Position numbers and translations under genes: made by a program
Shown here: piece by piece, positions 29,944 to 38,092 of the stretch
How positions within the stretch are numbered: position 1 is the stretch's first letter
Layout: every line of letters starts with the position of its first letter
Source: a virus
Taxonomy: Duplodnaviria; Caudoviricetes
Length of the DNA stretch: 64,000 bases
IMG/VR virus record: IMGVR_UViG_3300031992_000007
Coordinates: 64,001-128,000 of that record
Direction: 5' to 3' (one strand)
Notes under the pieces: model-generated
The model's input: only the letters and a program-made list of their open reading frames with translations
What the model was told of the DNA's origin: nothing
Database searches by the model: none

Positions 29944-30462
29944 TCATGGCGGCGATACCTCCGAGCTGCGTGCAAGTATTGCACTTGAGTTATACCTATA
30001 ATCACGGCAACCTTTGCAGACCTGGAACTCTTCAACTGTTACAAGAACCTGCTCCCAAGGAAGCTGTTCCACGAAATGCTTCTTCATCGACTCGAATGCC
30101 TCCGTGGGAACCTCGTGTACATTCTTGAAGAACTTGAGGTTCTTAGGATCCATCGTGTAGATCCTGAAGTCATAGTTGAACTTCTTGGCGAGTTCAACCA
30201 GTTCGGCAACTGAACCTTCGCTACAACCAACCCTGCTGACAGCAAGATTGACCTTCTGCTGCATCGCTGTAGTGACCATAGCGTGCACATAGTCCCTGAC
30301 GCGACCACGAGGATCGCCTTCATTGACGTACACATACGAGCCTCCAGGCGTGATCCACACCTGATCGTTCTCTATTTGAAGCATTCCAGGGAATGCCTTT
30401 TGAACAAATGTGGTCTTGCCAGTACCAGGCAGACCACGAACAATATGGATGATGTTATTCAT
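29944..30462 (-). CDS. P-loop kinase (AAA_33 / polynucleotide kinase-like)
   Basis: Walker A RGLPGTGKTT; NVHEVP motif. Confidence 0.8.
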   Translation of the reverse strand: MNNIIHIVRGLPGTGKTTFVQKAFPGMLQIENDQVWITPGGSYVYVNEGDPRGRVRDYVHAMVTTAMQQKVNLAVSRVGCSEGSVAELVELAKKFNYDFRIYTMDPKNLKFFKNVHEVPTEAFESMKKHFVEQLPWEQVLVTVEEFQVCKGCRDYRYNSSAILARSSEVSPP

Positions 30463-30760
30463 TTGTGTCCTTTTTGGTTGGTAACCGATCTCTCGGTATA
30501 AATTGCCCATCGATGTAGACTATGTCGAACCCTAGACATAGATCTCGAATGCAGAACGCGTCTGTTGGGACTTGGAAGAACTTTGCTAATTCAACTAACT
30601 TGGTAGCTAGCTCTTCCTTGCTCTCAGAATAGTACTGAGTGATATTGATCAACTTGAAGGTCCATGCCTTATGGGCATGATAGGGCTTGAGTAGGAACCT
30701 AGCTTTTTGTGGACTGGTTACTATCATCGCTACACAATCCTTTCTTGTTAAAGAATTCAA
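30455..30760 (-). CDS. hypothetical protein
   Basis: 101-aa ORF coupled to the kinase gene; start uncertain. Confidence 0.45.
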   Translation of the reverse strand: MNSLTRKDCVAMIVTSPQKARFLLKPYHAHKAWTFKLINITQYYSESKEELATKLVELAKFFQVPTDAFCIRDLCLGFDIVYIDGQFIPRDRLPTKKDTNE

Positions 30761-30843
30761 GCTTTACATATCAGACTACACAAAAGTAATTTATAACTGA
30801 AATAGGGTCGACCCTTCTCCCATTAAGGGAGAAGGGCCTTAGT

Positions 30844-32487
30844 TCAGAACGAGTCCTTAGGAGGGTTCGCTGTCAAAGCATGAACTGTAATTGCTACAAG
30901 GTCGTCTGTACCTACCTGGGTTTTGCCAGAAGGAAGGATGTAGTTCTGCGGAGAGTTGCAGTACTTCTCGCATTCCTCGTTGGCTTCTTTGCCGTAGATA
31001 GGGTTCCAGGACACTGTATCCCCGTCGTAGTCCGCCGTCAACCCAGCACGTTTACTAGGATGGAACTTAAGAACGTCCTCTACCGTCGCTCCCATCACTG
31101 GATACTCAGGGAGAAGTTCACCAGCTCCAGTTGAAGCGTTGGTAACGAAGTTAACAACTCTTGCAGGAGCGGTGCTCATCAGGTGAGTCTTGGAAGGGAA
31201 GATCGACTGCTGATCAGTTACAGGATAACGAGTGATCAAACCGTACTTGCCTTTGCTGGCGTAGTACGTGGCTATGTACATCATCTCGATATAGGTAAGA
31301 GGATGCAGCTTCTTGGGATCGAATGTTCCTTTGTAGTCCTGTTTGAACTCGTTCAGGTTACGGAAGATGTAGATGTCCTTGACATCGTCATACACCAGAT
31401 AGAGGTAATAGGGTTTACCCTTAGACCTGACTATAACAGGACGGAACCTGAAGTCAGGATCCCTGAACCTGTCGATAGTCTTCTGTATTCCATTGGAAGT
31501 CAGAAGAAGGTCTTTGTCCTTGTCGTCTATTGGAACGTAACCAAGTAGGTTAGTTTCAGGATCGATCATCGATACGGAATCTGAACCCTGACTTATTACA
31601 TTCGAGTAGAACAGGAGTCTCATCCAGTAAACAACCAAAGACGAGAAGCCTTTAGCAGCCTGGTAAAGAGGAACCTTGACTTCATTAGGTCTGTGAGCCT
31701 GAGGACTGTCAGGTTCAGGAGCTTCCATATTGGTAGCTGTAATGACGTTACGAGTACCACCAACGATGTGACGGTGGGCAAGTTTACCCTGGAGGAAGCC
31801 CTTCTTACCTTCAACCATGTTGTACAAGCACTCATAGATTTCCATCACTTTCCTCTGGATAGAGAAATGGACGGAGTCATAGAGAGGATCTTCATTGCCG
31901 AAGGGAGGCATGGCTTTGGTAGAGCTAAGCAACGAGGTGTAAAGTGAGTTGATAGAACCCTTCTCTATCCTACCTTCTTCCTCGGACATATCTCTGATGC
32001 CAGCAGGTATAACGATGCAGTATTCGATGAGAGCCCTGTCCTTATACTTGATCATGATGTTGATCTTGTCTTCACGGCGAAGAGACTGATTCTTCTTGAA
32101 GTTGATTTCTTTGAAGTGCTTCAAAAAGAAAGAATATCCAGTATCAGCACCTTCTTCGGTCTCACTGGACCGAATGAAGTCTTTCTCTTGCTTGTCCCAG
32201 ATGGCATACTCTCTACCAGCCATGATCTCCACGTAGAACCTCTTCATAGCCTGCAAGTTCTGGTAGATGACAGGATGAAGGACTTTACAGTTAAGACGGA
32301 TGAACGCGTGTCTGGTCATGCGCTCTTCAGAAGTAACTGGGGCGAAGATGAGTTCTGAGAAGAGCCCCTCTGGGTGGAAATCTGAACTTGAGGAATTATG
32401 GATAAGTGGAGATGTGACCTCTTTGAGAGCGTGATCTTTGATGAACTTTTCTACATCCATGATCGCTATGTTCAAAGGCGCAGCCAT
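30844..32487 (-). CDS. virion RNA polymerase beta' catalytic subunit (phiKZ gp180-like)
   Basis: FHPEGLFSELIF, KKGFLQGK...TRNVITA, TRYPV, catalytic ADYDGD; start MAAPL with RBS AAGGAG. Confidence 0.9.
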   Translation of the reverse strand: MAAPLNIAIMDVEKFIKDHALKEVTSPLIHNSSSSDFHPEGLFSELIFAPVTSEERMTRHAFIRLNCKVLHPVIYQNLQAMKRFYVEIMAGREYAIWDKQEKDFIRSSETEEGADTGYSFFLKHFKEINFKKNQSLRREDKINIMIKYKDRALIEYCIVIPAGIRDMSEEEGRIEKGSINSLYTSLLSSTKAMPPFGNEDPLYDSVHFSIQRKVMEIYECLYNMVEGKKGFLQGKLAHRHIVGGTRNVITATNMEAPEPDSPQAHRPNEVKVPLYQAAKGFSSLVVYWMRLLFYSNVISQGSDSVSMIDPETNLLGYVPIDDKDKDLLLTSNGIQKTIDRFRDPDFRFRPVIVRSKGKPYYLYLVYDDVKDIYIFRNLNEFKQDYKGTFDPKKLHPLTYIEMMYIATYYASKGKYGLITRYPVTDQQSIFPSKTHLMSTAPARVVNFVTNASTGAGELLPEYPVMGATVEDVLKFHPSKRAGLTADYDGDTVSWNPIYGKEANEECEKYCNSPQNYILPSGKTQVGTDDLVAITVHALTANPPKDSF

Positions 32488-32570
32488 GATGTTTCTCCTT
32501 TTAGATTCAAAATAAAAATGGCATAGGATGTTTGCCCTCCCCTCCTTATTAGGGAGGGGAGGGTTGTGGT

Positions 32571-32897
32571 TTAGTCGTGGTCGTGTGGGTTGAGTTCCTC
32601 TTCGACCTTTAACCACTTTCTTGCGACGGGCATGTAGAAGAGTATTCTCTGCTCCACATACGGAGTGAGTTCTTCTGACACCCAGAACTCGGTTCGGTTG
32701 TAATACCTCCGAGCTTCGAATACTGTGCCTGTTATCAGACGCCAACCCATGATCCGGACATACTTCTCATCTGCACCGTCGTGACGACAGAAGAAAACAT
32801 ATCCGTTGATGGTTATGCCTCCGGTTATTTCTCCATACTGACTCAGGAGTTTGTCTATCTCCTCAGCGAGTTGAGAGTTTGTCTCTAGCTTCTTCAT
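32571..32897 (-). CDS. hypothetical protein
   Basis: Start MKKLETN, RBS AAGGAG, own promoter (32938-32967) and terminator (about 32535-32563). Confidence 0.7.
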   Translation of the reverse strand: MKKLETNSQLAEEIDKLLSQYGEITGGITINGYVFFCRHDGADEKYVRIMGWRLITGTVFEARRYYNRTEFWVSEELTPYVEQRILFYMPVARKWLKVEEELNPHDHD

Positions 32898-32970
32898 CGG
32901 GGATCTCCTTTTGTTGTTGGTGGTTGTTAACAATATCGTAATATATAAATCAAGAGTATTGATTAACTTT

Positions 32971-33791
32971 GAGGTGAGCATCCAGAACTTGGATATTGGA
33001 TAGCATATCACGAAGGTGGTTCTGATAGAGAGGGAACGTGTGTTTCAGCGTGGACTCGCAGTGGATATTATTCAGTAGACAGACTAGCATGTAGGCTCTC
33101 CTATCTGGAGGTGAGGGTGAACGCTATTGGCATGCTGGGTGGTATGGAGCAATGGCTGTAGACAGAGAAGGAAAGAAATTGAATGTGACTATCTACTGGG
33201 TAGTTAATCTTGATATACACAATAGGCTCTCCTCAGAGGTGAGAACAGAGAAGGACAGTCGATATGTCTACGAGCAGTCGCTGATCAAGAGAATAATTCC
33301 TCACACGATGTCTTAACGTTCTACTCAAATAGAATCATGAACTCGATGTATCCTGGATCTGTGTATCGTAAAAGGCTCTCCCCCTCCAGAGGTGTAACTG
33401 ATCAGTCTTACGACACAAGATTTATTGTTGATAACAGAACTGTTGGTGGAACTGTTCCTGGTTCGACATATTCAAGTGGTTCTAGTTTGAATCGAGTTTA
33501 TGGAATGACTAACAGGCTCTCCTAAGGAGGTGAAAGAACAGGCTACGTATGTCAGTGTTACATTGGACTTGCAGGATATTGTGGGACTGATACAGGCAAC
33601 ACTACAATGAATCCAGCACGACCGTTATACGATGCAGAATTTCCCAGGCTCTCCTAAAAGGTGGACAGTCTAATGGCGCACCTCTCTTTGAATATGCGTG
33701 GAGACACTGGTTCATGATGAAGAATGGGTTTCACGGAACGAACTTCTCACCTAACTGGGATAATGATGTCTCCATAAACACAAGGCTCTCC
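32971..33791 (+). repeat. array of six variable cassettes bounded by (G/A)AGGTG ... AGGCTCTCC
   Basis: AGGCTCTCC at 33093, 33224, 33373, 33514, 33646, 33783; (G/A)AGGTG at 32971, 33108, 33236, 33389, 33527, 33658; each unit is an open frame G...RLS. Confidence 0.9.
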
Positions 33792-33811
33792 AAAAAATAA
33801 AAGCAAGCAAT

Positions 33812-33841
33812 GCCTTCCCTAGGCCGAAGCCTAGGGAAGGT
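33812..33841. terminator. strong hairpin terminator closing the cassette array
   Basis: CCTTCCCTAGGC-cgaa-GCCTAGGGAAGG preceded by an A-tract. Confidence 0.85.
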
Positions 33842-33844
33842 TAT

Positions 33845-34235
33845 GCCCATCACTATCCCTGATGTTGAGACATTTCCAGTATCACACCCCATGAGAGCTC
33901 GTCTCTAACACGGGTCAATCACTCCCGTGCCGCAGAAAGGACGCCGGAGAGTCAGCTCTCTCCGGCAGTTCGACGAGGGATAGCCGTGTACAGGTAGGAT
34001 AACCATTAACCCACCTACGTGCTAACTGTAGCAAGTCCATGCCCTCCATACAGAGAACACGCCTGGTTAAGATACACGGCTGGAGCCCAGACCATTTGAC
34101 AAGTGTGTTTTCGATGTCCCTGGCACGAGTTCTGTAGTACACCACTATACCCCTAAACAAGGGCGGAGATCAGTGGTGGAAAGGACTCGGGGCGGCCCAA
34201 CTCCGGCTACATACATTCGTGATGACTGTTTAAAT
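33845..34235. ncRNA. candidate structured non-coding RNA
   Basis: About 390 nt without a convincing ORF, with several complementary helices (see findings). Confidence 0.4.
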
Positions 34236-34238
34236 CGC

Positions 34239-35843
34239 TTACCAGTTCCTACGACGGTAACCGCCATGGAAACTGGGACCATCCTGAACTTCTGCCAGTG
34301 TTACCCAGCGTCCAGGTATATGATGAGTTGCGATCCAAGATTCATCCTCGAGACCGTAGTCGCGGCGGGCGATAGCGATCCTCCAGAACTTGCCATCTTT
34401 CATCTTGACGAATGCCCAAACGACGTCGTCGTAGAACACGTCAGATTCAGTCGGGTAAGTTCCCTGACCATCGATCTTCGTCTCCAAGAACGACTTGGTC
34501 TTAGCCTGGTTGTGGTAGTCGTTCAGGAAGGTGTGAACGTGGTTGGCTGACGGAGCTGTTGTTCCGAACATTGCCATGAGCGTTCCGTTGCGATACTCAG
34601 GATCGGTGATATCAACGAAGTCAGTTTTCACGGGCTTGTCCTCCTTGTCTGATTGCATGGTATTCTGAAGTTCCCTTTCAGGTTCCTTGATCCTGATCTC
34701 GACAGTGTAACCCTTGTCGAAGTCATACTTGACTCCACCGATCTCGTAGTCGCGATCAAGCAGCTTGCCTGTCGCTATCGGGGATTCGATGAGTTTGTTG
34801 AGCACGATTTCGGCACGGTCGTGTTCAACTTCGAGGCAGTTTATATCGTTGCCCAATACAGTCTGTCCAATTTCATCCTTGATCTTATCGTAGAGTTCGG
34901 TCTTGCTCTTGTCAACGTACGGGCTGACATCAAGCTTGGAGTCTGCATACTCGGGCATTACTTCGACCCAAATGGTAGTGCTTCCTGTATTCACTTCTGG
35001 TTCCTCCTTAGGTTGTTTTTGCTCTTCGACTGGTTCAGGTTCTTCAGCAGGAGCTTCTTCTACTCCTGGTGCGTCATCCCCGTCGGTTCCTCCGTCGGAT
35101 TCGGATCCAGCATCTCCTTCTTCAGGCTCTGCAGGTTCCTGCTCGTCTCCGGAGTCGTCGGGATCGGGGGAGTCTGGCTCGGATTGTTCATCTGTTCCGC
35201 TATCTGTGACGACACCGCTTTCCAGAACGGACTCTCCAGTGGATCTATCATCTTTGACCTCCTGTTTTTCTTCGGTTGATTCTAGTGTCTCGGTAGAAGG
35301 CTGTTCTTCTTCTTCAGGTTCATGGTGAACCTCCACGACCTCTGGTGGTTCGTGGAAGAGGGACTCATTCTTGAGTCCCTTCACGAAGTTCTCCTTCTGG
35401 TCGACTTTGAACACAGTAATCCTCTGACTGCTGTATTCGATGAGAGGACGGCTGACAACCGCCTCGTATTCAGATCCATCGAGTTCCTTGGCGAGCACTT
35501 CGTATTCAAGCGTGATGCGAGAAACGTTGTGTCCGTCTGGACGAGGGAGTTTGCTTAGAATGATGTTCAGACCATAATCGGTCGTAAACTTCCACACAAC
35601 TCCGAGACGGAACTTGTTGATGAGATGCATTCCGAGTGCATGGCTCTGATCGCCACAGGAGTTCAAGATCCCATTGGCGATGTCATGGATGCTGCTTTCT
35701 CCATAGTTGTTGCTGGAGATACTGAGCAGCATGCGGCAAAGCTGCATGCTGTCGATACGATCCAGACATCCGAATCCTTCCTTCTTGATGCGATCTCCAA
35801 GAGAAGTAACATTCGGACCTGATAGCTTGATTGTACTAATCAT
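34239..35843 (-). CDS. hypothetical protein with long acidic linker
   Basis: Start MISTIK with RBS AAGGAG; E/D/P-rich central region. Confidence 0.8.
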   Translation of the reverse strand: MISTIKLSGPNVTSLGDRIKKEGFGCLDRIDSMQLCRMLLSISSNNYGESSIHDIANGILNSCGDQSHALGMHLINKFRLGVVWKFTTDYGLNIILSKLPRPDGHNVSRITLEYEVLAKELDGSEYEAVVSRPLIEYSSQRITVFKVDQKENFVKGLKNESLFHEPPEVVEVHHEPEEEEQPSTETLESTEEKQEVKDDRSTGESVLESGVVTDSGTDEQSEPDSPDPDDSGDEQEPAEPEEGDAGSESDGGTDGDDAPGVEEAPAEEPEPVEEQKQPKEEPEVNTGSTTIWVEVMPEYADSKLDVSPYVDKSKTELYDKIKDEIGQTVLGNDINCLEVEHDRAEIVLNKLIESPIATGKLLDRDYEIGGVKYDFDKGYTVEIRIKEPERELQNTMQSDKEDKPVKTDFVDITDPEYRNGTLMAMFGTTAPSANHVHTFLNDYHNQAKTKSFLETKIDGQGTYPTESDVFYDDVVWAFVKMKDGKFWRIAIARRDYGLEDESWIATHHIPGRWVTLAEVQDGPSFHGGYRRRNW

Positions 35844-35859
35844 GTTTTCTCCTTTTAGT

Positions 35860-37944
35860 TTATGGTACAGGATAGACATCCGAAAATAGAAGTTTACTGT
35901 CTTCAAAACCACAAGCTACACCTATCTGCTTCAAGAGAAGATGACAAGGCTTGACGTTGTGATAGATAATGTCAGTGAACTTCACAAGAGGGATGATCTC
36001 GGGTGGCACCTTACCACCAACGGGATTGATGACGAATGTAGATGGCGGCTTGTTCTTCGCAAGGAATGCCATCATGCGCTGATAGATGTCTGGACTGGTC
36101 TTGGACAACCAGTTCAGATATTCCTTGTTCGGAACATGCACTTGAACTGCTGGAGCCTTGGTAGGAATCAGGATGTCTCCGTATTTCTGAGCAAAGATCT
36201 CCTGCCAGGCGTAGTAGTAATACCAGTTGGACTGAAGAGGTGTGGCGTAATCAGTCTTCTTGCGGATAGACAGACTCTTGAACCAGGTGGAACTACCTTC
36301 CTGCAAGTCCTGTCTAATCTTGTTCTCGAATGTACTGACTTTGTGCACCAACTCATGTCCTGAGATCTTACCATTGTTGTTCATGTTTATCAGAACGTCG
36401 TTCTCAGAAAAGTTCTTAGCGAAGGTAACTGCTTCCTTGCAGATATCAGATCCCTTGAACTGAACACCTTTAATGTCGATCTCTGGCTTGGGTAGCAGAA
36501 CACCTTCCTGAATAGCCACGATGCCAGCATAATGTTTCTTCACATCAGCCAGGATCATAACCGTATACAGGAACTCGTTCTTCATAGCCATCACTGTCTT
36601 GTATTCATCCCTTGCTCCATGAGCTTCACTGTAGATCAAGAGAGTGTGGGCGATAGCCTGGGTTATCCAGTAGATCATCACACAAGCGATGTGATAGGAT
36701 TCAGGAGCAGTGCTGTAGACATCTCCAGTATACCACTTAACCCAGTCCTTAACTGTAAAGATGACCGAGTCAGTATCGGAAATAACTGCAGAGTTCCTGA
36801 TCATGTTGGGTCGGGTTCTGACAGAAGTCCTATTAATAGGAGTAAAGAGGAACGTGTTGAACAGTTTGTCCATGTCCTTGAGCTTCTTGTCCACATACCT
36901 TGCGATATGCACGAACTTGACAGCCAGGTCAGGGAAGAGTTTAGGAAGGTCGTAGACCTGAACCTCAGGATCGTGTGGGTCAACATGCTCTCTGAACGCC
37001 ACGTTGCACAGAATAACTAGAGCTCCGTCTAGTTTGAACAGATCGTCTGGGACTACTTTGCTGTCGGAGAAGTCGACATTGTTGATGTCGAACAGTTCCT
37101 TGAACCAGCCTTTCATTGTCCCTTCGTTACCCATGAACATGTGACGAAGATTCTGGAAGTACCAGAAGTACTGAACCTCCGAATCATTCAGCTTGCTTAT
37201 CATGTCAGTGAGCATGGAGAAGTCATCATACCTGTGGTACATGGTAAGACACTTCTTGTAGAACTCGAAAAGATCGTTGTGAGTGGCTCTCTTCAACTTG
37301 TAGGTGGACATGACTTCTTCAACAGCAGCACAGTCTATACCTTTATTGAGGTGAGCTACGATGTGTTGAAGAAGTTCGTCCATAGAGAACCAGGCAAAAT
37401 TGCCTCCAAGAACAGCTTCGATCTCAGAGTTGGCATAGCCAATCAAAGATCTGCCACACGAAGTGATGGCGTTGTAGTTAGCCTTGCTGTAGAACAACGA
37501 ATACGGAGATCCGTAGTTACCAGGCAAGCTGTTCATGGTTATCTTGATTAACGTCTGAGCGTAGTAGTGCTTGAGTTCCTCGGTGGTATTACCGGCAGCC
37601 TTAGCTTTAAGCTGGAGTTTCTTCTCCCTCTTCCGGTTAGCCATCATCTCGATGATCATCTCGATCGTCTTGGACATCTTGACACTGTGCTGGCAGAACA
37701 CAGAACCCGAGTCAGACAGGATGTTATCCTTCTGAGCATCGAACCACGAAGCCAGGTCGACTGCCTTGATGACAGGGACTCCGTCTTCCTTGGTTTCCTC
37801 GATTATTGCTGTTAACGGGTGGTACGTTTCCTTGCACAGTTCCAGGCTGTATGTCCTGGCTTTATCTTCTGGTAGTCCGTACTTCCTCATCATGTACGTA
37901 GCTACTTGGTCTCGGTAACATTTGAGCAATGGTTGACGAGCCAT
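35860..37944 (-). CDS. phiKZ-type family B DNA polymerase (polymerase-domain subunit)
   Basis: KITMNSLPG.YG, SDTDS, KKHYA and IKG motifs; RBS GGAGG; TATATTAC at 38014-38021. Confidence 0.85.
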   Translation of the reverse strand: MARQPLLKCYRDQVATYMMRKYGLPEDKARTYSLELCKETYHPLTAIIEETKEDGVPVIKAVDLASWFDAQKDNILSDSGSVFCQHSVKMSKTIEMIIEMMANRKREKKLQLKAKAAGNTTEELKHYYAQTLIKITMNSLPGNYGSPYSLFYSKANYNAITSCGRSLIGYANSEIEAVLGGNFAWFSMDELLQHIVAHLNKGIDCAAVEEVMSTYKLKRATHNDLFEFYKKCLTMYHRYDDFSMLTDMISKLNDSEVQYFWYFQNLRHMFMGNEGTMKGWFKELFDINNVDFSDSKVVPDDLFKLDGALVILCNVAFREHVDPHDPEVQVYDLPKLFPDLAVKFVHIARYVDKKLKDMDKLFNTFLFTPINRTSVRTRPNMIRNSAVISDTDSVIFTVKDWVKWYTGDVYSTAPESYHIACVMIYWITQAIAHTLLIYSEAHGARDEYKTVMAMKNEFLYTVMILADVKKHYAGIVAIQEGVLLPKPEIDIKGVQFKGSDICKEAVTFAKNFSENDVLINMNNNGKISGHELVHKVSTFENKIRQDLQEGSSTWFKSLSIRKKTDYATPLQSNWYYYYAWQEIFAQKYGDILIPTKAPAVQVHVPNKEYLNWLSKTSPDIYQRMMAFLAKNKPPSTFVINPVGGKVPPEIIPLVKFTDIIYHNVKPCHLLLKQIGVACGFEDSKLLFSDVYPVP

Positions 37945-38092
37945 ATTCGTTTTCCTCCAATGTTCATTCAATGACCAAAAGTTGTAAACATTTAGAGGTC
38001 GATTTACATTAAGGTAATATATGTGCCAGGAGTAGACGGGGTAAATCTATCCTATGGTCCTTACTTTAAATGAATAAGAAAGGTAAAAGACA

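Follow-up and report, generated by a model that had tools for sequence, protein, structure and literature searches.

The stretch of DNA analysed here (the window, 64,000 nucleotides) spans bases 64001-128000 of a virus record of 265,480 bp, for which the CheckV rating is complete. At window positions 32971-33791 it contains six head-to-tail units, each of which opens with GGT, after an A in every case, and closes with CTC TCC as part of the invariant 9-mer AGGCTCTCC (Table 1). This 9-mer is seen six times in the window compared to 0.63 expected, and none of 100 shuffles reached six. A preliminary description of the window had interpreted the units as silent, in-frame variable cassettes, and their positions, lengths, frame, lack of stop codons and translations were all found to be as given there. 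It had furthermore been claimed that the linkers break the frame or contain TAA with read-through between units 3 and 4 only, and that no start codon lies at a consistent distance from the units. Both claims hold for the window sequence, the linkers measuring 8, 5, 9, 6 and 5 nt in order.

On the minus strand, the hairpin to the right of the array is followed by a T-rich run, and it is thus inferred to be, probably, the terminator of the minus strand genes to the right of the array, leaving the array in a gap that is probably untranscribed. No sigma-70-like promoter facing the array was found in the sequence around it, nor was there an Rfam match at E<=1 within window positions 30000-37000 or a tRNA within the window. 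The ~400 nt between the array hairpin and the next large gene (window 33841-34238) are without an ORF of at least 100 aa, the short ORFs present measuring 53, 81 and 45 aa, and a G+C-rich terminator-like hairpin is located inside this gap at window 33942-33967 (minus strand). The adjacent 557-aa ORF (window 34239-35912, minus strand) has no Pfam match and overlaps by ~50 nt a divergent family-B DNA polymerase (window 35860-37971, minus strand; PF20286, E 5e-113).

Table 1. Coordinates of the window array and its surroundings, of the cassette arrays of the whole genome, and silent cassette counts in relatives.
Feature	Coordinates	Strand	Description
Silent cassette 1	window 32973..33101	+	129 nt, 43 codons, GGT...CTC TCC; in frame, stop-free, without start codon; first of array
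Silent cassette 2	window 33110..33232	+	123 nt, 41 codons; preceding linker 8 nt, frame-shifting
Silent cassette 3	window 33238..33381	+	144 nt, 48 codons; preceding linker 5 nt
Silent cassette 4	window 33391..33522	+	132 nt, 44 codons; preceding linker 9 nt, the only in-frame linker (ORF 33337-33525)
Silent cassette 5	window 33529..33654	+	126 nt, 42 codons; preceding linker 6 nt with TAA
Silent cassette 6	window 33660..33791	+	132 nt, 44 codons; array end, followed by A-rich run and hairpin, likewise at other arrays
3' anchor GGCTCTCC	window 33784..33791	+	window holds six copies, the other five ending at 33101, 33232, 33381, 33522, 33654
Hairpin	window 33813..33840	-	perfect 12-bp; on the minus strand a T-rich run 12 nt further on
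AT-rich spacer	window 32901..32972		separates array from start of minus strand gene 32571-32900
Array	genome 1424-2268	+	6 units
Array	genome 11111-11913	+	6 units
Array	genome 56724-57695	+	7 units
Array of the window	genome 96973-97791	+	6 units
Array	genome 136018-136719	+	5 units
Array	genome 234729-235269	+	4 units
Array	genome 243018-243857	+	6 units; the last one is the donor 243698-243857
Array	genome 246106-247384	+	9 units
Single unit	genome 262969-263112	+	1 unit
Silent cassettes in relatives			L027: 1; L028: 1; L029/L150: 9+2+3; L030: 3; same grammar

A whole-genome search for the anchors, proposed in the preliminary description in the expectation of further arrays and a full-length gene, revealed both: additional arrays and a single full-length gene with the two anchors in frame. 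GGCTCTCC occurs 50 times on the plus strand and three times on the minus strand. Two of the three minus strand sites close extra cassettes beside the 11-kb array while the third sits in the recipient ORF, giving a total of ~52 cassettes (50 plus, 2 minus), which are spread over some 10 arrays between genes. All units start with AGGT and end with GGCTCTCC, measure 111-153 nt (37-51 codons), are a multiple of 3 in length and are stop-free in the GGT frame. For the plus strand units, which measure 114-153 nt, frame +0 is open in 50/50, and any other frame in at most 13. At the genome base composition, the probability that all 2239 codons of these 50 units are open is 3.5e-50, and the probability that all 50 lengths are divisible by 3 is 1.4e-24. 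Codon usage likewise prefers frame 0 in 49 of the 50 interiors, with the anchors left out.

The 3' anchor GGCTCTCC is invariant in all 50 units as well as in all relatives, with identical Leu and Ser codons each time. The 5' anchor had been described as (G/A)AGGTG. The AGGT core of this motif was confirmed in all 41 internal units, but the final G is present in only 39 of them and the (G/A) prefix is not invariant. Apart from AGGT(G) and GGCTCTCC the cassettes have nothing in common and are mutually unrelated, two pairs excepted, with encoded peptides of high Gly, Ser, Asn, Tyr and Trp content. The arrays sit behind terminators and lack a visible promoter; that they are transcriptionally silent is an inference, made without transcription data. 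The two minus strand cassettes are the only ones oriented like the recipient, and lie back to back with a six-unit plus strand array, the two sets, together at genome 10854-11913 (L011), diverging from one point.

The recipient gene is located outside the window, as a 1412-aa ORF at genome 224574-228812 (minus strand). Among the long ORFs of the genome, it alone carries the two anchors in frame. Neither Pfam nor PHROG gives a match for the protein. Its C-terminal end consists of a constant YWWLRSAGG, a 50-codon tip, RLS and then PLITIG followed by the stop codon, with the 3' anchor GGCTCTCC extended to GGCTCTCCCCGCT; in general form, the residues between tip and PLITIG are (R/W/G)LS. Residues 1357-1406 are identical to the final cassette of the 243-kb array. 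At the DNA level the tip matches this donor (243698-243857) in 160/160 nt, the match starting at CTCCGCCGGAGGTG and stopping exactly at GGCTCTCC, while the outer flanks are unrelated. No copy of the recipient's downstream flank, which could have served as a crossover site, was found elsewhere in the genome. One recipient with both anchors in frame, containing an exact copy of one cassette, supports the earlier proposal, in which two short anchors serve to copy stored tips into an expressed gene. We infer that the recipient is a receptor-binding virion surface protein, in the absence of binding data.

Relatives were sought in collections of 5.8 and 1.8 billion proteins, in which only a small family was found. 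Including cluster members, the recipient family comprises about 30 proteins, on contigs of up to 260 kb. The constant framework precedes the tip in all 28 relatives reaching the motif, and 22 of these 28 retain the LSPLITIG end (absent in P0006, P0007, P0009, P0011, P0022 and P0023). Between framework and end, about 20 unrelated tips are found across the relatives. Both GCCGGAGGT and GGCTCTCCCCGCT are unchanged across lineages with 41-64% protein identity in the region, while the codons beside the anchors (Leu-Arg-Ser, Ile-Thr-Ile-Gly) differ synonymously between lineages. The anchors are frozen while adjacent codons drift, which is a constraint at the level of the nucleic acid and not of the protein. 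Several individual tips are unusual: the tip of one strain carries a 15-nt internal duplication (P0024 compared with P0005), P0022 and P0023 have short aberrant tips without the closing RLS that may be frameshifts or contig ends, and in P0009 the reading frame seems to run on from the framework into several units that resemble cassettes and have a variant end motif.

Silent cassettes of the same grammar are also present in the relatives' loci, where they lie between terminator hairpins (Table 1). About 25 kb of DNA was read for each relative, and the donors for most observed tips are not within it. Array content differs between close relatives. Homologous cassettes occupy different arrays in different genomes, and the number of cassettes in the syntenic array is 1, 1, 3, 4 or 9. 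Evidently, cassettes are able to move from one array to another. Genes nearby match PF12699 (phiKZ internal head protein), which positions the group close to the phiKZ-like jumbo phages. No match was obtained in a phage record collection, and protein-based locus searches in IMG/VR and JGI found nothing. A triple-anchor pattern gave 14 loci in IMG/VR, all of them unrelated tandem repeats, collagen-like genes or CRISPR-like arrays, and 119 loci in JGI metagenomes, of which only one is a true, more distant array. This six-unit array (L093:3264-4114, JGI contig Ga0310786_10039241) has the 3' anchor unchanged and TGGAG as 5' anchor, suggesting the 3' anchor is the more deeply conserved element.

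Comparison of related genomes for alternative cassettes at the expression locus, also proposed in the preliminary description, revealed near-identical strains with different tips, one of which was drawn from a resident store. L029 and L030 are 87-92% identical, with the alignment interrupted only between the expression-site anchors. L028 and L152-L155, each from a different one of five samples, share 99.5-99.7% identity across 14.5 kb, yet their five tips are unrelated; between L028 and L152, identity is 99.66% and 99.58% on the two sides of the tip, with no alignment inside it. The L152 tip matches a silent cassette of the same strain (L152:598-756, minus strand) in 156/159 nt. This cassette lies ~14 kb away in inverted orientation and is still in place, and in the other four strains it is found in silent form only. 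Two of the three mismatches look like later changes in the donor. Both observed copies, in our genome and in L152, are whole cassettes. The exact duplicate in our genome together with the L152 case shows that copying is non-reciprocal and leaves the donor in place. In principle, an assembly effect could have produced the duplicate in our genome, but the three mismatches in L152 argue against this. As a separate observation, three independent metagenome contigs assembled with SPAdes (L153, L154 and L155) break off once 51-55 nt of the shared 3' flank have been read. Such breaks would be expected if the samples contained mixed tips and the assembly graph (k=55) branched there, a hint that rests on inference only.

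To assess selection on the silent cassettes, six homologous pairs were compared with the anchors excluded: four cassettes of our genome with homologues in L029 or L030 arrays, and two within-genome paralogue pairs. Pooled pS was 0.50 versus a pN of 0.23. By this measure of substitution, the silent cassettes are shown to evolve under purifying selection as protein. Occasional use in the expression site is the simplest reason why start-less, out-of-frame DNA should be kept as coding.

Further clues come from the joints. The 3' joint is always at GGCTCTCC, and three different 5' joints have been seen: GCCGGA + GGT in most strains, GCCGGA + GAGGTC in L153 and GCCGGA + GTTGGTGAT in L154. In P0025 and P0006 the expression site holds two tandem cassettes with an in-frame linker. 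Many of the array linkers are suffixes of the recipient upstream flank (A in 41/41, GA 26, GGA 16 and GCCGGA 5 times), with GCTCCGCCGGA occurring once in our genome and as a near-copy in L029, such that linkers repeat up to 11 nt of this flank, or 15 nt including the AGGT anchor. None of the array linkers carries the recipient's downstream CCGCT. Taken together, the joints and linkers show that, whichever way the transfer runs, copies are fixed at the 3' end and ragged at the 5' end.

The observations made directly are the library, the recipient, the anchors, donor retention, switching between near-identical strains and protein-level selection. We consider it probable that the window array is one of about ten silent stores, with ~52 tips between them, that feed the C-terminal end of one 1412-aa surface protein by duplicative, non-reciprocal transfer of whole cassettes. 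In the proposed mechanism, one whole cassette would be copied from an array into the single expression site while the donor stays in place, as in gene conversion. The copy would be bounded on the 3' side by GGCTCTCC (in the recipient GGCTCTCCCCGCT), and on the 5' side by a short, somewhat ragged match to GCCGGAGGT. The 3' anchor may be where the event starts: the extended site found only in the recipient could be cut or nicked, for instance, with the CCGCT extension acting as a mark. A DNA polymerase would then copy the donor towards its 5' end, and the new strand would be rejoined by microhomology of a few bases, as in synthesis-dependent strand annealing. Tips might occasionally be copied back into arrays. 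The near-universal inversion of the donors is not accounted for by this strand-annealing model. The inversion may prevent the DNA from the expressed copy to its donor from being deleted, or may reflect the mechanism itself.

A more specific version of this proposal is possible, and we put it forward only tentatively. Here, a phage factor would recognise GGCTCTCCCCGCT, prime the copying of any cassette ending in GGCTCTCC, join the product on 4-9 nt and write used tips back, making this a homology-independent, anchor-addressed copy-and-paste process. The arrays would in that case constitute a two-way memory of binding specificities, as opposed to a fixed donor set.

The enzyme responsible has not been identified. 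Six-frame Pfam searches of the genome for Phage_integrase, Resolvase, RecA, RecT and GIY-YIG found none, while HNH gave only a sub-threshold match far away at 177 kb. A Pfam analysis of 26 neighbouring proteins provided no enzyme candidate, nearly all of these being without a significant match. Given that nearly all phage proteins tested lack a significant Pfam match, the absence of an enzyme is weak evidence, and the switching enzyme may be unrecognisable by Pfam. We know of no recombinase that makes do with anchors as short as 5-9 nt, and as far as we are aware, anchors of such length are also too short for ordinary homologous recombination.

The lack of a detectable enzyme leaves room for a passive origin of the arrays, as a graveyard or archive. 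Replacement of a tip would then be a rare outcome of ordinary recombination between phages, and intergenic DNA would collect the tips that had been displaced or duplicated, without dedicated machinery. Such a process could explain why linkers hold pieces of the recipient upstream flank, as if tips had moved out of the expression site, and why the arrays of close relatives differ in content. However, a graveyard would not be expected to preserve frame and anchors intact in all 52 cassettes, nor to remain under purifying selection. The fixation of the anchors at the DNA level despite 41-64% protein identity, and the presence of five tips among strains that are 0.3-0.5% diverged, with one drawn from the strain's own store, similarly argue against it. 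We therefore regard passive accumulation as unlikely, and favour active transfer from the stores.

The nature of the recipient's last domain bears on a second alternative. The preliminary description had invoked a C-type-lectin fold, for which support is only indirect, consisting of sequence links to DUF6273. DUF6273 has been described as a C-type-lectin-like domain diversified by DGRs in phage receptor-binding proteins (PMC10743442; bioRxiv 10.1101/2024.10.15.618418). Its variable region lies at the C-terminal end of the domain (bioRxiv 10.1101/2024.10.15.618418; PMC10743442 for one target class), and in tentaclins the DUF6273 domain is found at the protein N-terminus (PMC10743442). The recipient itself does not match DUF6273 at E<=0.1, but P0012, which has the recipient framework, scores 24.1 bits against the Pfam model (PF19789; curated cut-off 23.5), and P0012 is also recovered, at 1e-20, when the C-terminal region of the recipient is used as a profile. 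In a relative, the second gene downstream of the recipient encodes P0013, which clearly is a DUF6273 protein, and BLASTP between the recipient and P0013 gives an E of 2e-5. The hhalign comparison of the recipient family with DUF6273 gives 97.9%, with P0012 included in the target alignment. Among the Atlas feature matches, 26/30 are DUF6273 clusters, and a second DUF6273 gene is located in the same genome about 4.4 kb downstream of the recipient stop codon. The last domain of the recipient may thus be a divergent DUF6273 domain, a putative assignment that is supported only indirectly and with the fold unconfirmed. The structure models are too poor to bear on the fold either way: AlphaFold2 runs on the last 277 and the last 508 residues, based on 8 and 13 aligned sequences, are of low confidence, with pLDDT values of 39.5 and 43.6, and a profile search of PDB sequences with the recipient found nothing.

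It is therefore conceivable that the system is a relative of DGRs, with array transcripts reverse-transcribed by a very divergent or host-encoded reverse transcriptase and the cDNA replacing the tip. The target domain would be of the same kind (DUF6273), with a variable region of similar position and size (PMC10743442), and the arrays share one orientation. The joints also offer a parallel. BPP-1 DGR retrohoming combines a precise, G+C-rich 3' boundary with a 5' boundary that is ragged and depends on homology, and here too a precise G+C-rich 3' boundary is paired with a ragged 5' boundary. The preliminary description had set the system apart from DGRs, and this distinction stands. A six-frame search of the whole genome with RVT_1 (PF00078) gave no match at E<=1, while control genomes did match. 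Donor and expressed copy in our genome are identical at all adenines over 160/160 nt, and just one of the three L152 mismatches is at a donor adenine. Furthermore, there is no single template, the 52 cassettes being mostly unrelated to each other, and the arrays sit behind terminators with no promoter visible. A DGR-like origin hence appears improbable, and cassette copying at the DNA level is retained as the preferred explanation.

Donor orientation could instead point to a site-specific inversion switch, a shufflon of the Gin/Cin/Rin type, in which the anchors would be crossover sites and tips would be swapped by flipping the intervening DNA. Donors are indeed nearly always inverted with respect to the recipient, in 50/52 cases in our genome and 19/19 in the relatives' loci. 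However, the donor persists after the switch both in our genome and in L152, and its retention excludes inversion switches. The ~14 kb between the L152 donor and recipient are collinear in switched and unswitched strains, and gene order is identical across all relatives' loci read. Neither an invertase nor an integrase was found in the searches of the genome, and a flip at one anchor would replace the constant PLITIG tail. We consider an inversion switch very improbable.

Independent expression of the units as small peptides or structured RNAs, with the copy in the large gene being incidental, is scarcely credible: GGAGGTG, a perfect Shine-Dalgarno match, precedes many units, but a start codon at a consistent distance and Rfam or tRNA matches are absent, the tip of the large gene is framed by the same grammar in every relative, and strict codon periodicity rules out a purely RNA role. 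Linker bypassing or frameshifting, spliced mini-exons, tmRNA-like tags and CRISPR-like arrays were also considered, and were dropped given that a cassette DNA copy sits in the recipient gene.

Phages are known to retarget their binding proteins by point mutation, DGR hypermutation or DNA inversion between two to few alternatives. Duplicative transfer of ready-made, selected tips, of which about fifty are stored, would add a fourth route to these, and would show that a reverse transcriptase is not required to diversify binding domains of the DUF6273 type. The analysis supplies a testable sequence grammar of two anchors, one slot and an inverted-donor rule. Tip switching may also explain the contig breaks just past the recipient gene in three metagenome assemblies. 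The system points to an as yet unidentified enzyme that replaces ~130 bp between anchors of <10 nt. If true, anchor-addressed copy-and-paste would represent a new class of targeted DNA rewriting. We found no description in the literature of a silent-cassette system in a phage or virus, which is not proof of absence.

Among phage systems, Mu Gin, P1 Cin and the Rin shufflons of Bifidobacterium prophages similarly keep alternative fibre C-terminal ends silent in opposite orientation. These switches rely on conservative inversion by a serine or tyrosine recombinase between few gene-adjacent sites, whereas the transfer proposed here is duplicative, with donors up to >200 kb away and the recombinase undetected. 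The DGRs acting on C-lectin/DUF6273 phage proteins (BPP-1 Mtd, tentaclins) resemble the system in kind of target domain, C-terminal position, variable-region length and presumed change of binding (PMC10743442; bioRxiv 10.1101/2024.10.15.618418). In contrast to DGRs, the phage library lacks reverse transcriptase, Avd, template repeat and adenine mutagenesis, and its diversity is finite and stored, not generated anew.

The logic matches that of antigenic variation in spirochetes, Neisseria and trypanosomes. In the vls system the cassettes are inverted relative to the expressed gene, and the cassette region is bracketed by 17-bp direct repeats. The vls system of Borrelia burgdorferi comprises the vlsE expression site and start-less, in-frame, head-to-tail silent cassettes, with unidirectional transfer and the donor retained (PMC2632889; PMC11499132). 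The phage system shares with it a single expression site, start-less in-frame inverted arrays, donor-retaining transfer and short bracketing sequences. However, vls cassettes are ~90% identical to the resident one and conversion is segmental, while the phage cassettes are unrelated, have anchors of 5-9 nt and are replaced whole. The vls target is an immune-evasion lipoprotein, whereas here the carrier is a virus and the target a virion protein. In Treponema pallidum, tprK is supplied by 53 silent donors (PMC10063172). Both tprK and Neisseria pilE/pilS resemble the phage system in having dozens of silent donors, one expression site and non-reciprocal conversion, but they build mosaics within the conserved frameworks of a homologous gene family, where the phage exchanges whole cassettes in one discrete slot. 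Unlike those of vlsE, pilE and tprK, the phage donors have no extended homology to the recipient, and no RecA-type gene was detected. By analogy with these systems, the logic would be that of silent-cassette antigenic variation, and the mechanism may prove to be new.
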